Source: Fidelibacterota bacterium
Lineage (GTDB): Bacteria; Fidelibacterota; UBA8477; JABMPR01
NCBI GenBank assembly: GCA_018650445.1
Contig: JABIFX010000214.1
Coordinates: forward strand, 2,174 to 66,173
Length of the DNA: 64,000 nucleotides
Direction of reading: 5' to 3'
The notes below the pieces were generated by a model. It saw only the letters and a list, made by a program, of their open reading frames with translations, was not told the DNA's origin and ran no database searches. A program made the position numbers and the translations under genes. Each line of letters opens with the position of its first letter. Positions within the stretch are counted from its first letter, which is position 1. Below, piece by piece: positions 7,817-64,000 of this stretch.

Positions 7817-7824
7817 AACCTAAA

Positions 7825-8841
7825 GTGCGCCTTCTCTTCCTCTCACTAATCGTTATCATAGGGTCGAGTGGGCTGTTTGCTCAAAGTCAATTTAAAGCTG
7901 CATTCTGGAATATAGAGAATCTATTCGATACTACGAATGCAGCTCATATCCGGGATGACGATTTTACTCCCTCCGGTAAATATCAATGGACTGAAGAAAG
8001 ACTGACAAAAAAGTTCCAGGATCTATCCAGGGTTATCCATGATATTGATAGGTCCAATGATCTTGCCATATTGGGTCTGGCAGAGATTGAAAATAAATTC
8101 GTTTTGAATCGTTTAAATGAAGATTTCATAAAACGTGGAATGAAGATGGTTCACAAGGAATCTCCTGATGAACGGGGCATTGACTGTGCTTTGCTTTATG
8201 ATCCCAGCCTGGTCACTGCCAGGAACATTCAGTTCCACCCCATTTATCTGGCGGGAGATGAGAAAACCAGAGATATTGTTGAGACTGAATTTAGTTTTAA
8301 CAATACCGATGAGAGCAAAACGCTCTACGTCTTTGTTAATCACTGGCCTTCTCGCTGGGGAGGTCAGAAAAAAACAGATCCGCTCCGTCGAAGCGCTGCC
8401 AGTACGCTACGAATTCGCATAGATCAAATTCTTTTAAAGAATCCTCAGGCAGATATTTTAATCATGGGTGATTTTAATGATTATCCAGATGATCCCTCAT
8501 TATATGATATCCTCAGAGCTCATGAAGCAGGTCCCCATTCCTATCCAGGTGACCTGGTTAATACAACCTGGTCGTTAGATAAAAACCCTGATGCCGGAAC
8601 CTGTATGTACCGAGGCAAATGGACAGTACTGGATCAAATTATCATTTCAGCTGGTATGCGGGACAAAAAGAATTTTGATTGGGCATTCGAATCCACACAG
8701 ACTTTTATGCCTGCTTATCTCATTGAAAAAGACGGAAGGTACAAAGGCTGGCCTTACCGGATGTATCGTAGTAGTAATTATCATGGTGGATATTCTGACC
8801 ATTTGCCCATTATATGTAATATCCTAGTAAGTCATAATTAA
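7825..8841 (+). CDS. Secreted endonuclease/exonuclease/phosphatase (EEP) family protein
   Basis: GTG start and signal peptide MRLLFLSLIVIIGSSGLFAQ. EEP-type motifs WNIENLFD, VNHWPSR, GDFND and SDHLPI are present. Confidence 0.75.
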   Translation: MRLLFLSLIVIIGSSGLFAQSQFKAAFWNIENLFDTTNAAHIRDDDFTPSGKYQWTEERLTKKFQDLSRVIHDIDRSNDLAILGLAEIENKFVLNRLNEDFIKRGMKMVHKESPDERGIDCALLYDPSLVTARNIQFHPIYLAGDEKTRDIVETEFSFNNTDESKTLYVFVNHWPSRWGGQKKTDPLRRSAASTLRIRIDQILLKNPQADILIMGDFNDYPDDPSLYDILRAHEAGPHSYPGDLVNTTWSLDKNPDAGTCMYRGKWTVLDQIIISAGMRDKKNFDWAFESTQTFMPAYLIEKDGRYKGWPYRMYRSSNYHGGYSDHLPIICNILVSHN

Positions 8842-53005: not shown

Positions 53006-53078
53006 GCGAGAGTAGCTCAGTTGGTAGAGCTCCACGTTGCCAACGTGGTTGTCGCCGGTTCGAGTCCGGTCTCTCGCT
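53006..53078 (+). tRNA. tRNA-Gly (anticodon GCC)
   Basis: Cloverleaf read by eye. Acceptor GCGAGAG/CTCTCGC. D-arm GCTC-AGTTGGTA-GAGC. Anticodon arm CCACG-TTGCCAA-CGTGG. T-arm GCCGG-TTCGAGT-CCGGT. Discriminator is T. CCA is not encoded. Confidence 0.9.
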
Positions 53079-53081
53079 CAC

Positions 53082-58862: not shown

Positions 58863-60398
58863 ATGCTGGCACGTGTATTAAGCAGTTCACTAATTGGAAT
58901 AGATCCCTATCTGGTTGAAGTCGAGGTCAATGTTGAGGGCCACGCCTTTCGATACTCAACGGTTGGACTACCAGAGTTGGCAGTGAGAGAAAGTAAGGAC
59001 AGGGTGATCTCAGCCATCAAAAATAGTGGGTTCAGATTCCCACCCAAGGCATACACAATCAATCTGGCCCCTGCTGACATTAAAAAAGAGGGCTCAGCGT
59101 TTGATCTTCCCATCGCCATTGGCATTCTGGCCGCTTTGGGGATAGTCATCCATGAAGACCTCGATGACTATGTGCTTATGGGTGAATTGTCATTAGATGG
59201 TACTCTACGTGGCGTAAAGGGGGCTCTACCTTCAGCTGTGGGTGTACATGAGCATGAGATGAAGGGACTCATTCTACCCGCTCAGAATGCCCGTGAGGCA
59301 GCTGTAACTGGAAATATTGATGTTATACCCATTAACACCTTGCTGGAAGCCATCCGTTTTCTAAATGGGGAGCAAATAATTGAGCCAGTAGAAGTAAATG
59401 CAGAACATCTGTTTTCAGAAGCACAGTGCTATCCAGTTGATCTAGCTGATGTCAGAGGACAAGCCCATGTAAAGCGGGCACTTGAAGTAGCTGCATCAGG
59501 TGGTCACAATGTCCTCATGATAGGTCCTCCTGGATCAGGCAAAACCATGCTGGCTAAACGATTTCCAACCATTCTTCCTCAAATGACTCTCGAGGAAGCC
59601 CTGGAAACCACCAAGATTCATTCCATAGCAGGCATGGTCAAAACTGAAGGTCTTGTAGCCACCCGACCTTTCAGATCACCTCATCATACCATTTCAGACG
59701 CTGCATTGGTTGGTGGTGGTCGTATTCCGCGCCCAGGAGAGGTTAGTCTGGCGCATCATGGTGTGTTATTCCTGGATGAACTGCCGGAGTTTCAGAAAAA
59801 TGTACTGGAGGTGTTACGACAACCTCTTGAAAACACAGAAGTCACTATCAGTCGTGCCAGCATGAGCCTCACCTATCCTGCCAATTTTATCCTTCTGAGC
59901 GCAATGAATCCCTGCCCCTGTGGTTATAGCAGTGATCCCCGGCATGAATGCACCTGCAGCAGTGTAGGCATTCAGAAATACATGGCTAAAATCTCTGGAC
60001 CACTTCTAGATCGGATTGACCTGCATATAGAGGTACCAGCAATCCCCTTTGAAGCCTTATCCAGTAAAGAAGAAGGAGAATCCTCATATGAGGTCAGAAA
60101 GCGGGTTCAGTTAGCCAGGAACACTCAAATCAAACGCTTTGCAGATGAGCCACATATTCATTCCAATGCTGATATGCCGCCAAAAATGATCCGAGGGCTC
60201 TGCAAGGTTGATGGTGAGTCAGCTTCCTTGCTTAAATCTGCTATCACCAACCTCGGTTTAAGTGCTCGAGCCTATGATCGCATTCTTAAGGTTTCACGGA
60301 CAATAGCTGATCTATCAGAGTGCTCTGAAATTCGAGCTGAGCATATATCAGAAGCCATTCAGTACCGTACTCTGGATAGACAATTATGGATGTCCTGA
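58863..60398 (+). CDS. comM: Mg-chelatase-like AAA+ protein YifB/ComM
   Basis: ATG 58863 has AAGGAG upstream and starts MLARVLSSSLIGIDPYLVEVE. It has a Lon-protease-like N-domain, Walker A GPPGSGKT, Walker B VLFLDELPEF, and CPCGY...C.C. Confidence 0.9.
   Translation: MLARVLSSSLIGIDPYLVEVEVNVEGHAFRYSTVGLPELAVRESKDRVISAIKNSGFRFPPKAYTINLAPADIKKEGSAFDLPIAIGILAALGIVIHEDLDDYVLMGELSLDGTLRGVKGALPSAVGVHEHEMKGLILPAQNAREAAVTGNIDVIPINTLLEAIRFLNGEQIIEPVEVNAEHLFSEAQCYPVDLADVRGQAHVKRALEVAASGGHNVLMIGPPGSGKTMLAKRFPTILPQMTLEEALETTKIHSIAGMVKTEGLVATRPFRSPHHTISDAALVGGGRIPRPGEVSLAHHGVLFLDELPEFQKNVLEVLRQPLENTEVTISRASMSLTYPANFILLSAMNPCPCGYSSDPRHECTCSSVGIQKYMAKISGPLLDRIDLHIEVPAIPFEALSSKEEGESSYEVRKRVQLARNTQIKRFADEPHIHSNADMPPKMIRGLCKVDGESASLLKSAITNLGLSARAYDRILKVSRTIADLSECSEIRAEHISEAIQYRTLDRQLWMS
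60308..60392. repeat. 85-bp direct repeat, copy 1 (functional 3' end of comM)
   Basis: TGATCTATCAGAGTGCTCTGAAATTCGAGCTGAGCATATATCAGAAGCCATTCAGTACCGTACTCTGGATAGACAATTATGGATG is identical base-for-base to 62116-62200. Confidence 0.95.
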
Positions 60399-60672
60399 TT
60401 AGCAATTCATGCGTTTTTGAGTTGGTGGGTTAGTGTCTCCCTGAGGATGAGCACTTCGGTCAACTCAGTACAATCTGCGCAGTGTTTCGAAGGGAGTATT
60501 TTTCTATTTGGCGAAGTTTCTGAGTTTTGGTCTCATAGACTCGATTATTGGGCCATATCGTATCATTAAATGCATATGCTGATTTCAGTGTTGCTGTAAT
60601 TAACTGTGGGATAGAGTGTTACGGGATAACGCCGTGGGATACATAATCCCTAGCCGTTCAACTTGAACATGT

Positions 60673-60701
60673 TAAAAAGCCCCAGACAATTGTCTGGGGC
60701 T
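60673..60701 (-). terminator. Rho-independent terminator of the esterase gene
   Basis: The minus strand reads GCCCCAGACA-AT-TGTCTGGGGC followed by TTTTT, 25 nt after the stop at 60727. The effective stem is about 8 bp. Confidence 0.7.
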
Positions 60702-60726
60702 TCCATAAGTGTGGCACAGTTACTGG

Positions 60727-61947
60727 TTATTTGAGATACAACATCTTGATCGTTTGACTATACTGTCCGGCTTGGAGTCGAGTAAAATAGACACCCGTAG
60801 TCACTTGATTCCCGGATTGATCCACCCCACTCCAGTTGATCTCATAGTGACCTGCAAGCTGCTCTTCATTCTCAAGAGTAACGACTTCTCGACCGGTCAC
60901 ATCATAAATAGTGATATTTACATTTGAGATTTCTGGCAAATCGTAGTTGATTGTGGTAGTGGGGTTGAAGGGGTTGGGGTGGTTCTCATACAAGCTGGGT
61001 TCCGCTATTCCTGAAAAATCATGGTCATCAATTTGTACCGCTCCAGTGGGATGAGGATTTGCCTGAAAGAATTTCATGATCTCATCATTCGCAGAAATAT
61101 CCCGATTGGATAATCCAGGTGTTGTCACACCAGGCCATCGGTGTTTTCCATTATTTATCCTATAAAACAATACTTCTGTTTCTGCCTCACAATTCTGGTA
61201 TGTAATCAAAGTTACGGTACTACTATCTTCAGTGTTGATATTGGGTAGATCCGTGACAAGCGAATCTGATATGCAGCCATTGGCATGAGCAAAGAAGGAT
61301 GGAGTAGCGGCAATGGGTGGGTAATTCTGGTCTCCAGCTTCTGGAAACCAGGGGTCATCTGTCCCAAATATCACGAGGGCTGAGATCGGTCTTGAGGGCT
61401 GCAATGAATCCAGATGATGATAGTATAGGCCACCTGACACACCTGCAACAGAAGCTACCTTATCTGCGAGTACACAGCCGAGATAGAAAACCATTTCTGC
61501 TCCAGTTGAAAATCCAGTCACATGGATTCTGCTCGAGTCCACATTGTAATTGGATTTGATATCATTGATCAATTCTTCCGTAAAGCTGATATCATTATGA
61601 CCAGCAGAATATGCACCTGGGACATTCCAACCGTAATCTGAATCCCCCCAAATTAGATCTGTAACAACGAGTCCCTGTGGATAAACAACTAAAAACTCTG
61701 CCGTATCTGCATCAACATTCATAACAGTATAGTTCATATGTAGATCTGCAGTGTGAGTGTACCCATGAAAATTAATGATAACTGGCCATGCATTTTGACC
61801 AGTATAAGTAGCTGGGGTATAGGTTTTATAAGTTCTCGTTGTATCAAAATGTGTGAATGAATGCGTGAAAACGGTTCCAGTTTGACAGAAGCATATCTTT
61901 GTGATTATAGAAATCACTATAGATATATTAATAATAATCCTGATCAT
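60727..61947 (-). CDS. Esterase (PHB-depolymerase/feruloyl-esterase-like alpha/beta hydrolase) with T9SS C-terminal sorting domain
   Basis: TRTYKTYTPATYTGQNAWPVIINFHGY and the nucleophile elbow GFSTGAEM. The C-terminus YENHPNPFNPTTTINYDLPEISNVNITIYDVTGREVVTL...GVYFTRLQAGQYSQTIKMLYLK is a type-A T9SS CTD. Confidence 0.8.
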   Translation of the reverse strand: MIRIIINISIVISIITKICFCQTGTVFTHSFTHFDTTRTYKTYTPATYTGQNAWPVIINFHGYTHTADLHMNYTVMNVDADTAEFLVVYPQGLVVTDLIWGDSDYGWNVPGAYSAGHNDISFTEELINDIKSNYNVDSSRIHVTGFSTGAEMVFYLGCVLADKVASVAGVSGGLYYHHLDSLQPSRPISALVIFGTDDPWFPEAGDQNYPPIAATPSFFAHANGCISDSLVTDLPNINTEDSSTVTLITYQNCEAETEVLFYRINNGKHRWPGVTTPGLSNRDISANDEIMKFFQANPHPTGAVQIDDHDFSGIAEPSLYENHPNPFNPTTTINYDLPEISNVNITIYDVTGREVVTLENEEQLAGHYEINWSGVDQSGNQVTTGVYFTRLQAGQYSQTIKMLYLK

Positions 61948-62115
61948 GCTGTCCCCCTATCGGTTGGATTCCCCAAGTGTTGAGCAGTGAGAAGGAGTCT
62001 CAGATGAGGTAGATCGAGATCGAATGTGAATGTGGCAACTATAATAACCTTATTTCTGCTAATTAGCAAATGGAGTGGAGGAAGCAAGCGGTCTTAGATA
62101 TATGTGCTACACCTA

Positions 62116-62200
62116 TGATCTATCAGAGTGCTCTGAAATTCGAGCTGAGCATATATCAGAAGCCATTCAGTACCGTACTCTGGATAGACAATTATGGATG
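62116..62200. repeat. 85-bp direct repeat, copy 2
   Basis: Identical to 60308-60392. The flanks diverge immediately on both sides. Confidence 0.95.
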
Positions 62201-62206
62201 GCGTAG
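62117..62206 (+). pseudogene. Displaced 3'-terminal fragment of comM (29 codons + TAG)
   Basis: It translates to DLSECSEIRAEHISEAIQYRTLDRQLWMA*. The intact gene ends ...QLWMS* (TGA). Confidence 0.8.
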
Positions 62207-62255
62207 CTGGGTTCTTGAGTTTTATGCACTTTATGAGTTTGAGAGTTAATATGGT

Positions 62256-64000
62256 TTATGAGTTGGTTGGTGATGCGGTTTTTGGGTTGACCTGGGGTAG
62301 CATTTTAGCTTGAGGACGACCAATTTGGCGTGATACTTTCACTTTATCAAGGAACTCTATATGCCTGACTGTCAGAGAGATTGCCCCAAAGTCCTCTTCT
62401 ACAAGGCCGCGCAAAAGATAGGGACGTGCATTGCTGAGCATACGACAAAACTTCCGATAGACTTTTGGAAAGAAGACGGTTTCATATATGGCTGTCGTAT
62501 CCTCAAAGCTAATGAACTCCATAGGTTCATCATTTTTCGTATGAACCACCTTTCCCGTGATAAGCCAGCCAATCACTGGCACTTCCTTCCCGATGTACTT
62601 CCGTAGATCGCAGGCCCGTACATAGGTCAAATGCTGCAGTAGCTTTGCGTACAGATTCAATGGATGACGTGAGATAAGAAAGCCCAATACATCGGCCTCA
62701 TGGATGAGCATTGTTTTTTCAGAGTATGCCCCTGTGTCAGGAATGTAGTAGCTGTCACGTTCATTTAGATCCAGCAGAGATACTGGTTTATCACGTCGCT
62801 GTTGGCTGGCTCTGGCCTGATACAGCTGCCACATGAGTCCAGGTCGAGCTTCTATGCCTTCTACACCATCAAAGCAGCCTGCTTTTATCAGGATGCGAAC
62901 ATCTGACTGGTCCAGTTCAGGCATGCGTCTTAAAAAACTCTCAAATGAGTCAAAACGGCCATTTGACTCGCGCTCAGCAATGATGTGCTCCAGAGCTGTT
63001 CGTTTGATCCCCTTAAGTTGCATAAAGCCGATCTGCACCCAGTCATTTAGCCCAGTATGGCGAATTTCTGAGATATTGATACTGGGAAGCAAGACTTTCA
63101 GACCAAGACGACGTGCTTCAGAGTAATACCCAAAGGTGGAGTAGTAACCACCCAGATTGGTCATGACGGATGCGATAAACTCCGCAGGATAGTGGGCTTT
63201 CAGGTAGGCTGATTTGAATGAAACCAGAGCATATGAGGCAGAATGGGGCTTACAAAAGGAATAGCCTGAAAAGGACATGATCATTTCCCAGAGGGTCTCG
63301 ATGATGCTATCTGCCACACCATTCTGACGGGCACCCCTCACAAACTTCTCACAATAATCACGGAGCTTGGCCTCTTTGTGTTTCTTGGACATGACCTTAC
63401 GCAATTCATTGCCTTCATCAGCATTAAAACCGGCAAGACGCATGGCGACTCTGGTGACATCTTCCTGGTAAACCATTATGCCATAGGTCTCTTTGAGGGT
63501 TTCATCAAGTAAGGGATGAAGCGGATCATAGTCACCACCATGGAGGCGACGGACAAATTCCCGGATCCATTTGTTGGCTGCAGGGCGAATAATACTGGAG
63601 GCAATGACCAGGTTTTCATAGTCACCGGTTTGCATCTTGCTCAGCAGTTGCCGTGTGGCTGGAGACTCAACATAAAAGCAGCCCATGGTGCGGGCAGTAC
63701 GGATAAGTTCCTGCGTTCGTAAATCTTCAAGGGGGTTTAGCTTCCAATATGGGATATCTACTCCATAATGTTCATGGACATCGGCTAGAATATCCCGAAT
63801 AACAGCCAGGGAACGATTCCCGAGAAGATCAATCTTAATCAATCCAAAGTCTTCTGCCTGATCTTTCTCCCATTGGATAATCTGAACTCCCTTGGGTGCA
63901 CGCTGGATCGGGACATAGCTTCTGATTTCCTGTGGTGTCAAGACAACTCCCCCGGGATGCACGCTCAGGTGTCTGGGAAATCCAGCAAGATAGAAGCCAT
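62256..64000 (-). CDS. DNA polymerase III alpha-family protein, C-terminal about 580 aa (DnaE2/ImuC-like, N-terminus beyond window)
   Basis: The ORF is open to the window edge. It has ...HPGGVVLTP (HxxG palm motif), LLGNRSL, GCFYVESP, YQEDV and an OB-fold region near the C-terminus. The length after the HPGG motif (about 565 aa) fits short DnaE2-type enzymes better than DnaE1. Confidence 0.8.
   Translation of the reverse strand, partial: GFYLAGFPRHLSVHPGGVVLTPQEIRSYVPIQRAPKGVQIIQWEKDQAEDFGLIKIDLLGNRSLAVIRDILADVHEHYGVDIPYWKLNPLEDLRTQELIRTARTMGCFYVESPATRQLLSKMQTGDYENLVIASSIIRPAANKWIREFVRRLHGGDYDPLHPLLDETLKETYGIMVYQEDVTRVAMRLAGFNADEGNELRKVMSKKHKEAKLRDYCEKFVRGARQNGVADSIIETLWEMIMSFSGYSFCKPHSASYALVSFKSAYLKAHYPAEFIASVMTNLGGYYSTFGYYSEARRLGLKVLLPSINISEIRHTGLNDWVQIGFMQLKGIKRTALEHIIAERESNGRFDSFESFLRRMPELDQSDVRILIKAGCFDGVEGIEARPGLMWQLYQARASQQRRDKPVSLLDLNERDSYYIPDTGAYSEKTMLIHEADVLGFLISRHPLNLYAKLLQHLTYVRACDLRKYIGKEVPVIGWLITGKVVHTKNDEPMEFISFEDTTAIYETVFFPKVYRKFCRMLSNARPYLLRGLVEEDFGAISLTVRHIEFLDKVKVSRQIGRPQAKMLPQVNPKTASPTNS

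Follow-up and report, generated by a model that had tools for sequence, protein, structure and literature searches.

We analysed a 64-kb stretch of contig JABIFX010000214.1 (hereafter the window), which derives from an uncultured bacterium of the marine Marinimicrobia (SAR406). The subject is the interval between comM and a convergent dnaE2 gene, where a single esterase gene lies between two identical copies of the comM 3' end. The features are given below from left to right, where L-numbers denote loci of relatives and T9SS stands for the type IX secretion system.

58863..60398, plus strand: comM/yifB, intact, 511 aa (Pfam ChlI, Mg_chelatase and Mg_chelatase_C; homologues of 511 aa)
60308..60392, plus strand: copy 1 of the 85-bp repeat, the last 28 codons of comM and its functional 3' end
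60393..60398, plus strand: replacement last codon and stop of comM, TCC TGA (Ser-stop)
60433..60508, no strand assigned: conserved non-coding block of about 75 bp, about 91% identical to L093 7575-7648
60527..60650 (core 60594-60650), no strand assigned: conserved left-arm segment seg125, common to the window, L105 and L109
60677..60702, minus strand: 26-nt perfect palindrome with a T-run after it, the cargo gene's intrinsic terminator, kept in L109
60727..61947, minus strand: cargo gene for a 406-aa secreted alpha/beta-hydrolase (polyhydroxybutyrate-depolymerase-type esterase) with a T9SS C-terminal sorting domain, assigned from Pfam
61948..62115, minus strand: right arm, the upstream region of the esterase gene, with a promoter-like site at 62069-62041
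62116..62200, plus strand: copy 2 of the 85-bp repeat, an orphan comM 3' fragment in the frame of copy 1, with a weak Mg_chelatase_C match
62201..62255, plus strand: original terminus GCG TAG, now displaced, with the 49-bp spacer native to the comM/dnaE2 junction, collinear with the empty sites of relatives
62256..64000, minus strand: 3' part of dnaE2 (error-prone DNA polymerase III alpha subunit), DnaE2-type, convergent to comM and leaving the window

The two repeat copies are in direct orientation and identical over 85 bp, with 0 mismatches, and their identity breaks off at all four edges. They form the sole such pair in the window, where shuffled sequences lead one to expect 0, and no further copy of the 85-mer was found there even when 3 mismatches were allowed. 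Directly beside this perfect match, TCC TGA and GCG TAG differ at five of six bases. The last ComM residue is hypervariable across the clade, being A, S, V, T, N, or E. The interval between the copies spans 1723 bp and consists of non-coding arms of 328 and 168 bp around a single gene; the right arm runs into TGATCTATC in the window. When the arms were aligned locally with the outer flanks, as for a larger decayed duplication, the scores were not beyond those of shuffles (best z = 2.6), and the sole residual likeness was a weak 16/18 match between 60413-60430 and 62254-62271. An earlier note on this DNA had described the perfect repeat with abrupt ends, copy 1 as the last 28 codons of comM and copy 2 as an in-frame orphan, and the convergent DnaE2-like gene beyond the fragment. 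It had also named the T9SS esterase with its own terminator as the only gene between arms of these sizes, with no integrase, excisionase, or transposase inside. All these observations were reproduced, the arms having no family matches.

The cargo protein matches Abhydrolase_2, Esterase, and Esterase_PHB in Pfam, and its tail matches Por_Secre_tail and FlgD_ig. Among 5.8 billion clustered proteins, no homologue with more than 50% identity was found outside its own near-clonal cluster, whose members differ by single residues, the variants being singletons. The last ~88 residues show 55% identity to the tail of the cargo protein in L109, both ending in KMLYLK, and neither the catalytic part nor the right arm has a counterpart in any relative. 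The composition of the insert is native. Its GC content (0.423) equals that of the window (0.423), the GC content at third codon positions gives z = -0.4, and the codon-usage distance is within the range of other genes; the tetranucleotide distance is about 2 standard deviations above the mean, under the maximum. The comparison of GC content and codon usage proposed in the earlier note consequently revealed no compositional anomaly.

Exact copies of the ComM and esterase proteins were found on dozens of contigs from ENA (MEGAHIT k141), JGI, and the metagenome-assembled genomes (MAGs) of NCBI, with constant gene order. All 11 of the loci that we fetched hold both 85-mers at equal spacing. The fetched contigs are near-clonal, having 0-2 single-nucleotide polymorphisms (SNPs) relative to the window over 8.2 kb. 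This within-species variation, with the esterase variants being singletons, gave no basis for dating the event.

We then compared the junction with those of relatives, ranked by ComM identity. comM and dnaE2 are adjacent and convergent, without the esterase gene, in nine related SAR406 lineages, with gaps of 13-321 bp:

L092: ComM identity 94%, comM-dnaE2 gap 135 bp
L093: ComM identity 92%, gap 119 bp
L096: ComM identity 90%, gap 33 bp
L100: ComM identity 88%, gap 321 bp
L102: ComM identity 88%, gap 14 bp
L012: ComM identity 86%, gap 20 bp
L099: ComM identity 83%, gap 13 bp
L112: in the window's own 90% ComM cluster, gap 155 bp
L108: 99.9%-identical strain on a low-coverage contig, gap 49 bp

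A synthetic empty site, built from comM through copy 1 and the right flank of copy 2, is collinear with L012 across the junction. Copy 2 with its right flank aligns with L092, L093, L109, and L112. Since copy 2 and its flank are collinear with the junctions of relatives, copy 2, GCG TAG, and the 49-bp spacer represent the original comM terminus, as the earlier note had supposed in placing the displaced terminus at the far junction. The alignments support an ancestral state with comM and dnaE2 directly adjacent and facing each other, from which the window allele would have arisen by insertion. The earlier note had also considered the case that all relatives share the duplicated arrangement, with no empty site; the comparison of synteny that it proposed gave empty sites in the nine lineages, among them the low-coverage L108 ending in Ala-TAG. 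Because empty sites exist in relatives, the arrangement is not an old local duplication. In several relatives, the gap is filled by tandem arrays of 7-8 nt (GAGTTTAT / GGGTTAT), located at 2274-2408 in L092, 8537-8691 in L112, 7537-7857 in L100, and 8537-8670 in L109. These arrays extend into the dnaE2 C-terminal tail, and hence the length of DnaE2 varies between about 1010 and 1040 aa among lineages.

L108 was inspected separately. It encodes the ComM variant P0001, which equals the window ComM except for its last residue, Ala. The contig joins window position 60392 straight to 62201, so that comM, one 85-mer, GCG TAG, the 49 bp, and dnaE2 follow one another. Over 5 kb, six SNPs separate it from the window; one lies inside the 85-mer, where both window copies have T. 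Recombination of one 85-mer with the other would be expected to yield just this structure. Coverage of the contig is 2.9x, its name is SPAdes-style, and it may be a collapsed loop; we regard the question of whether L108 is a real, precise empty allele as evenly balanced. The exact attB-type pattern gave 0 matches in metagenome_contigs. This negative is weak, as the collection is incomplete: it does not hold all JGI contigs, and a pattern that must match Ga0335112_10702073 (L109) returned nothing there.

In close relatives, the comM-dnaE2 interval holds the esterase gene, a DUF4386 gene, the gene of a 1142-aa T9SS protein, or nothing. The DUF4386 gene (233 aa) is found in L105-107, an abundant lineage with 85-88% DNA identity, and the gene of the 1142-aa T9SS-tailed protein in L109. 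Both have the orientation and the site of the window esterase, and both occur within the window's 90% ComM cluster; in the L112-114 lineage, the site is empty. No mobility genes were found in the interval, either in the window or in the alternative alleles, and the comM-end repeat is absent from the cargo alleles of L105 and L109.

The left arm of the insert has homologues at the same locus. L109 8342-8977 and window 60204-60834 form a continuous 655-bp alignment, which spans the comM end and the arm, takes in the terminator hairpin, and extends over the last codons of the cargo gene. Within the arm, homology to sister loci covers the 75-bp block, the seg125 segment, and the terminator, and it continues into the last cargo codons. 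Since the ~330 bp next to comM are homologous to what follows comM in sister lineages, the left arm is locus-native and the insert is not a discrete foreign element. The earlier note had given the sizes of the non-coding arms correctly; one point to correct is that the left arm is not anonymous DNA.

Two segments of this arm stand out. In L093, whose coding DNA is only ~79% identical to that of the window and whose comM also ends in TCC-stop, the 75-bp block sits in an otherwise empty comM/dnaE2 gap. The block is single-copy in all sequences examined, matches nothing in Rfam, and gives no fold signal. Three origins are conceivable: a very small mobile element, a site under constraint, or a tract recombined between lineages. 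The seg125 segment is 74% identical to L105 9544-9667 over 125 bp, and its counterpart in L109 lies at about 8690-8800. The seg125 core (CTGTAATTnnCTGTGGGAn6GTTACGG...) is single-copy and confined to occupied alleles, the cargo of which differs, being absent from empty ones. The core is conserved beyond neutral expectation and contains two small hairpins with invariant stems; analysis of covariation in seg125 gave no real signal. A search for the core in metagenomes, with the two abundant lineages left out, yielded 0 matches, which is uninformative in an incomplete collection. No structured RNA was matched in the arms by Rfam at E <= 1, except for a chance rliI hit, and a hammerhead-like reading of the arms was dropped for want of an Rfam match.

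The two sides of the insert have different affinities. Homology of L105 and L109 to the window dnaE2 begins only at 62319, their dnaE2 tails being different, and the window tail is of the empty-site type. On these alignments, the window allele looks like a composite: a left part of the 'occupied' type meets, at 62115|62116, a right part of the 'empty' type that starts 91 nt before the comM stop. Along the left flank (ispG-comM), L109 is clearly the nearest relative, with 87-95% identity. At the dnaE2 3' end (window 62320-62770), identity is 81% to L109 versus 84-87% to L112 and L105, and L109 is no closer than L112, L092, or L105. The discordant neighbours of the two flanks suggest a recombination breakpoint at the hotspot in one lineage.

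A scan of 92 loci for second comM ends revealed one further case, L042, in an Ignavibacteriae MAG with a ComM identity of 61%. There, the last 188 nt of comM (1894-2081) are repeated 5.9 kb downstream (7823-8010) with 88% identity, and the similarity, like that in the window, ends at the last codon. The repeats bracket 5.7 kb with rhodanese and sulphur-transport genes and a LytS/LytTR pair, without a recombinase or integrase. Of the 23 differences between the copies, 16 fall at third codon positions, and three amino acids are changed. Since the differences are mostly synonymous, the orphan is an orthologous comM end from another genome rather than a decayed duplicate formed in situ. This pattern is the mark of inter-genome recombination. 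The orphan copy of L042 overlaps the 3' end of a GT87 glycosyltransferase gene. A separate observation concerns P0248, a 138-aa open reading frame (ORF) corresponding to the C-terminal quarter of ComM and about 96% identical to L109. It is annotated on 12 contigs (NCBI, Logan, ENA) of up to 127 kb and is one of two things: a comM with a frameshift, or a further comM 3' fragment that was displaced in a sister lineage.

Searches for mobile elements were negative. Neither the insert nor the ~10 kb to each side of it holds a recombinase, and the arms contain no ORF with a family match and no gene relics. In 61 species-level genomes, 106 ORFs lie up to 4 kb downstream of comM, and no recombinase or integrase family recurs among them; T9SS-tailed proteins are among the commonest. 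The insert ends carry no terminal inverted repeats. The 85-mer, the 75-bp core, and the whole insert had no match in viral contigs, plasmids, or phages. The further copies of the core or arms that the earlier note had proposed to look for were likewise missing from the window, 114 loci, and the viral, plasmid, and phage sets, as was any attP-type context. Elsewhere in the window, no recombinase occurred among the families listed (best 25 per library), which were housekeeping only. A transposon or insertion sequence was rejected, there being no transposase and no inverted repeats, and an 85-bp duplication is far above the usual length. An integron cassette was rejected as well: there is no integrase, the cargo has its own promoter-like site and terminator, and by inspection the conserved block lacks RYYYAAC/GTTRRRY cores. 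Of the hallmarks of a site-specific element, the locus has repeats duplicating the target 3' end and an empty target in relatives; it lacks an encoded recombinase and a discrete foreign unit with shared att sequences.

On balance, and with modest confidence, we favour the reading that the comM-dnaE2 interval is a gene-turnover hotspot free of mobile genetic elements (MGEs) in one SAR406 clade, and that a single event of host recombination left the 85-bp repeat as its scar. The interval shows different accessory genes between conserved core genes and no mobility genes, as such hotspots do. As in 3'-end displacement, the anchor gene is intact with a new end, and the old end is orphaned together with a piece of the anchor. 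Divergence under coding constraint between the copies is present in L042; the window copies, having 0 differences, are uninformative in this respect. The repeat, the ancestral empty arrangement, the identity of copy 2 as the resident terminus, the locus-native left arm, the alternative cargo, and the lack of a recombinase in or near the insert are established; we infer by which route recombination proceeded, how the donor was related, and in which direction the event ran.

In the proposed sequence, the incoming DNA would have come from a related occupied version of the locus and would have carried a comM end, ~330 bp of downstream DNA, and the esterase gene with its own terminator and promoter. 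Homologous pairing at the conserved 3' end of the recipient's comM would have anchored one side of this DNA. The other side would have been joined illegitimately, 85 bp upstream of the end of homology, by homology-facilitated illegitimate recombination (HFIR). Alternatively, a circularised 1.8-kb fragment could have entered by a single, Campbell-type crossover within the 85 bp, with an equal product. Either way, comM would have remained intact, taking the incoming last codon and stop, and the recipient's own terminus (the 85 bp with GCG TAG and the native spacer) would have been orphaned beside dnaE2. In a gap of 13-50 bp, only such products would survive, because of selection for intact comM and dnaE2. 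RecA-type recombination between the 85-mers could later remove the insert precisely.

Several points weigh against this scheme. The copies are 100% identical, and the nearest other lineages differ by 7-20% over that stretch. Perfect identity would require that resident sequence was duplicated at the event, that the partner was conspecific, or that gene conversion followed; this is the main difficulty. No sampled sequence shows the esterase in a donor context, and the illegitimate joint is a reconstruction. In experiments, HFIR usually deletes recipient DNA rather than duplicating it. The precise empty allele of L108 would fit site-specific excision equally well. Finally, the analysis covered 64 kb and its flanks, and a recombinase encoded elsewhere might act in trans, to which we assign a minor but real chance.

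With such a recombinase, the insert would be a small non-autonomous integrative element, similar to a cis-mobilisable or satellite element. The 85-mers would be the attL/attR cores, and an enzyme encoded elsewhere would move the 1.8-kb unit. We consider this unlikely, though to be taken seriously. The att-like geometry with an in-frame replacement terminus fits it, as do the precise empty site in the contig of the 99.9%-identical strain and the second cargo-only insertion with a duplicated comM end in L042. The conserved non-coding blocks of the left arm could serve as recombinase-binding arms, and cargo islands of tycheposons are also bounded by partial repeats of the target gene. However, the alternative cargo alleles at the site are repeat-free, and the left arm is shared with the empty-site L093 and looks locus-native. 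With no recombinase within ~10 kb and none recurrent beside comM in the 61 genomes, these observations also speak against the site-specific integration into comM advanced in the earlier note. Further, repeat lengths and left boundaries differ between the two cases (85 versus 188 nt), the L042 copies are only 88% identical, and no collection searched held a second copy or an attP-type context. The esterase lineage is near-clonal, with the insert fixed in more than 20 contigs.

The earlier note had also offered a decayed island, that is, a larger integrase-bearing island at the comM 3' end, reduced to one cargo gene and its att repeats. The att-like geometry and the lack of a close homologue of the esterase in relatives would be expected of such a remnant. 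We find it distinctly improbable, as the arms hold no gene relics or family-matching ORFs, the composition is native, and the left arm is homologous to sister alleles with other cargo. The still perfect 85-mers are at odds with a long decay, and no intact island of this type was seen at comM in the 61 relatives.

An older two-step history would begin with a junction duplication or an insertion into the dnaE2 tail, followed by cargo replacement, with gene conversion keeping the 85-mers identical. L105 and L109 share both insertion ends and differ in cargo, which agrees with replacement, and a conversion tract would end exactly where the homology ends. The 16/18 match described above may be a dnaE2-tail-like relic to the right of copy 1, but this likeness is not significant (z = 2.6). 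TCC TGA and GCG TAG differ at five of six bases beside a perfect 85-mer, and the window has the dnaE2 tail of empty sites, not the kind found in L105 and L109. We consider this history very unlikely.

There is only a slim chance that the junction is a dedicated single-cassette exchange site. On that view, seg125, the comM 3' end, and the 75-bp block would act as recognition sites of an unlinked, unrecognised recombinase. This enzyme would exchange self-contained gene cassettes, mostly for proteins secreted by the T9SS, at a position downstream of the SOS mutagenesis operon, with the 85-bp repeat as its att core and L042 as a distant second example.

A chimeric join at the repeat, raised as a possibility in the earlier note, is practically excluded, since the same structure recurs in 11 loci and in over 20 contigs that stem from separate samples and several assemblers (MEGAHIT k141, JGI, NCBI), including k=141, which exceeds the 85-bp repeat length; no support for it was found in the window, and the only doubtful assembly is the empty-site contig L108.

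The neighbourhood gave some further observations. dnaE2 is the last gene of a cassette of lexA, an imuB-like gene (IMS), a 23S_rRNA_IVP four-helix-bundle gene, and dnaE2, as seen in L001 13394-18981, which continues window 62256-64000; no imuA was recognisable in this cassette. The dnaE2 cassettes of relatives hold extra small genes, such as a faint IS200-like Y1_Tnp ORF in L093 (10729-11265), and two IVP genes lie inside the cassettes of L105 (13925-14711) and L112. On the other side, window 1-55600 carries housekeeping genes (malic enzyme, SHMT, MreB/RodA/PBP2, HrcA-GrpE-DnaJ, glycogen synthesis, ABC transporters), with a tRNA-Gly(GCC) at 53006-53079.

Among known systems, AbaR/Tn6019 islands of Acinetobacter have the comM target family in common with the window. 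They are Tn7-like transposons that interrupt comM internally, make a 5-bp target duplication, and carry transposition genes. In the window, by contrast, comM is intact, the duplication is 85 bp long, and there are no transposition genes or terminal inverted repeats. Islands inserted by tyrosine or serine recombinases into the 3' ends of tRNA, tmRNA, and protein genes, such as tycheposons (bioRxiv 10.1101/2020.12.28.424599) and those at Dehalococcoides ssrA (PMC3146451), are closer in geometry. There, too, the repeats duplicate the target 3' end, the target stays intact, and the cargo is bounded by partial target repeats. The window differs in that no recombinase is present in it or in the sister alleles, the arms are locus-native, the sister cargo alleles are repeat-free, and there is no tandem accretion.

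Many hotspots of horizontal gene transfer have no genes of mobile elements, and their diversity arises through recombination at the core genes that flank them (Oliveira et al. 2017, PMC5635113). The comM-dnaE2 site resembles them in its fixed core-gene interval, its varying accessory genes, the lack of an integrase or transposase, and possible signs of recombination in the flanks. Unlike those hotspots, it holds single genes only, and whereas a clean double crossover is scarless, the window has an illegitimate junction and an 85-bp duplication of the flanking gene end. Displaced 3' ends and orphan modules are known from Rhs and type VI secretion system (T6SS) loci, for which HFIR has been proposed (Kirchberger et al. 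2017, PMC5361080). C-terminal displacement, as in Rhs, CdiA, and T6SS effector-immunity arrays, shares with the window a homology anchor, a newly supplied 3' end, and an old end orphaned downstream, with no recombinase needed. The L042 copies, with their orthologous and mostly synonymous divergence, also resemble it. By contrast, the anchor comM is a housekeeping gene whose terminus is not functionally polymorphic, a single codon changes, the payload is an unrelated neighbouring gene, and the mechanism is a reconstruction in the window. We regard the feature as a further example, from an uncultured marine phylum, of known phenomena: gene turnover at hotspots, and the displacement of 3' ends through one-ended homologous recombination.

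The locus provides a clean, datable case of a streamlined, uncultured SAR406 bacterium acquiring or exchanging genes for secreted enzymes one at a time, with no mobile element to be recognised. It also illustrates that the duplication of a gene end does not in itself prove an element driven by an integrase. With an 85-bp repeat on either side, the esterase gene can be deleted reversibly, and one possible empty allele (L108) was seen. The recurrence at a distant Ignavibacteriae comM suggests that such 'anchor-end duplication' scars could mark the one-ended homologous capture of foreign DNA generally.

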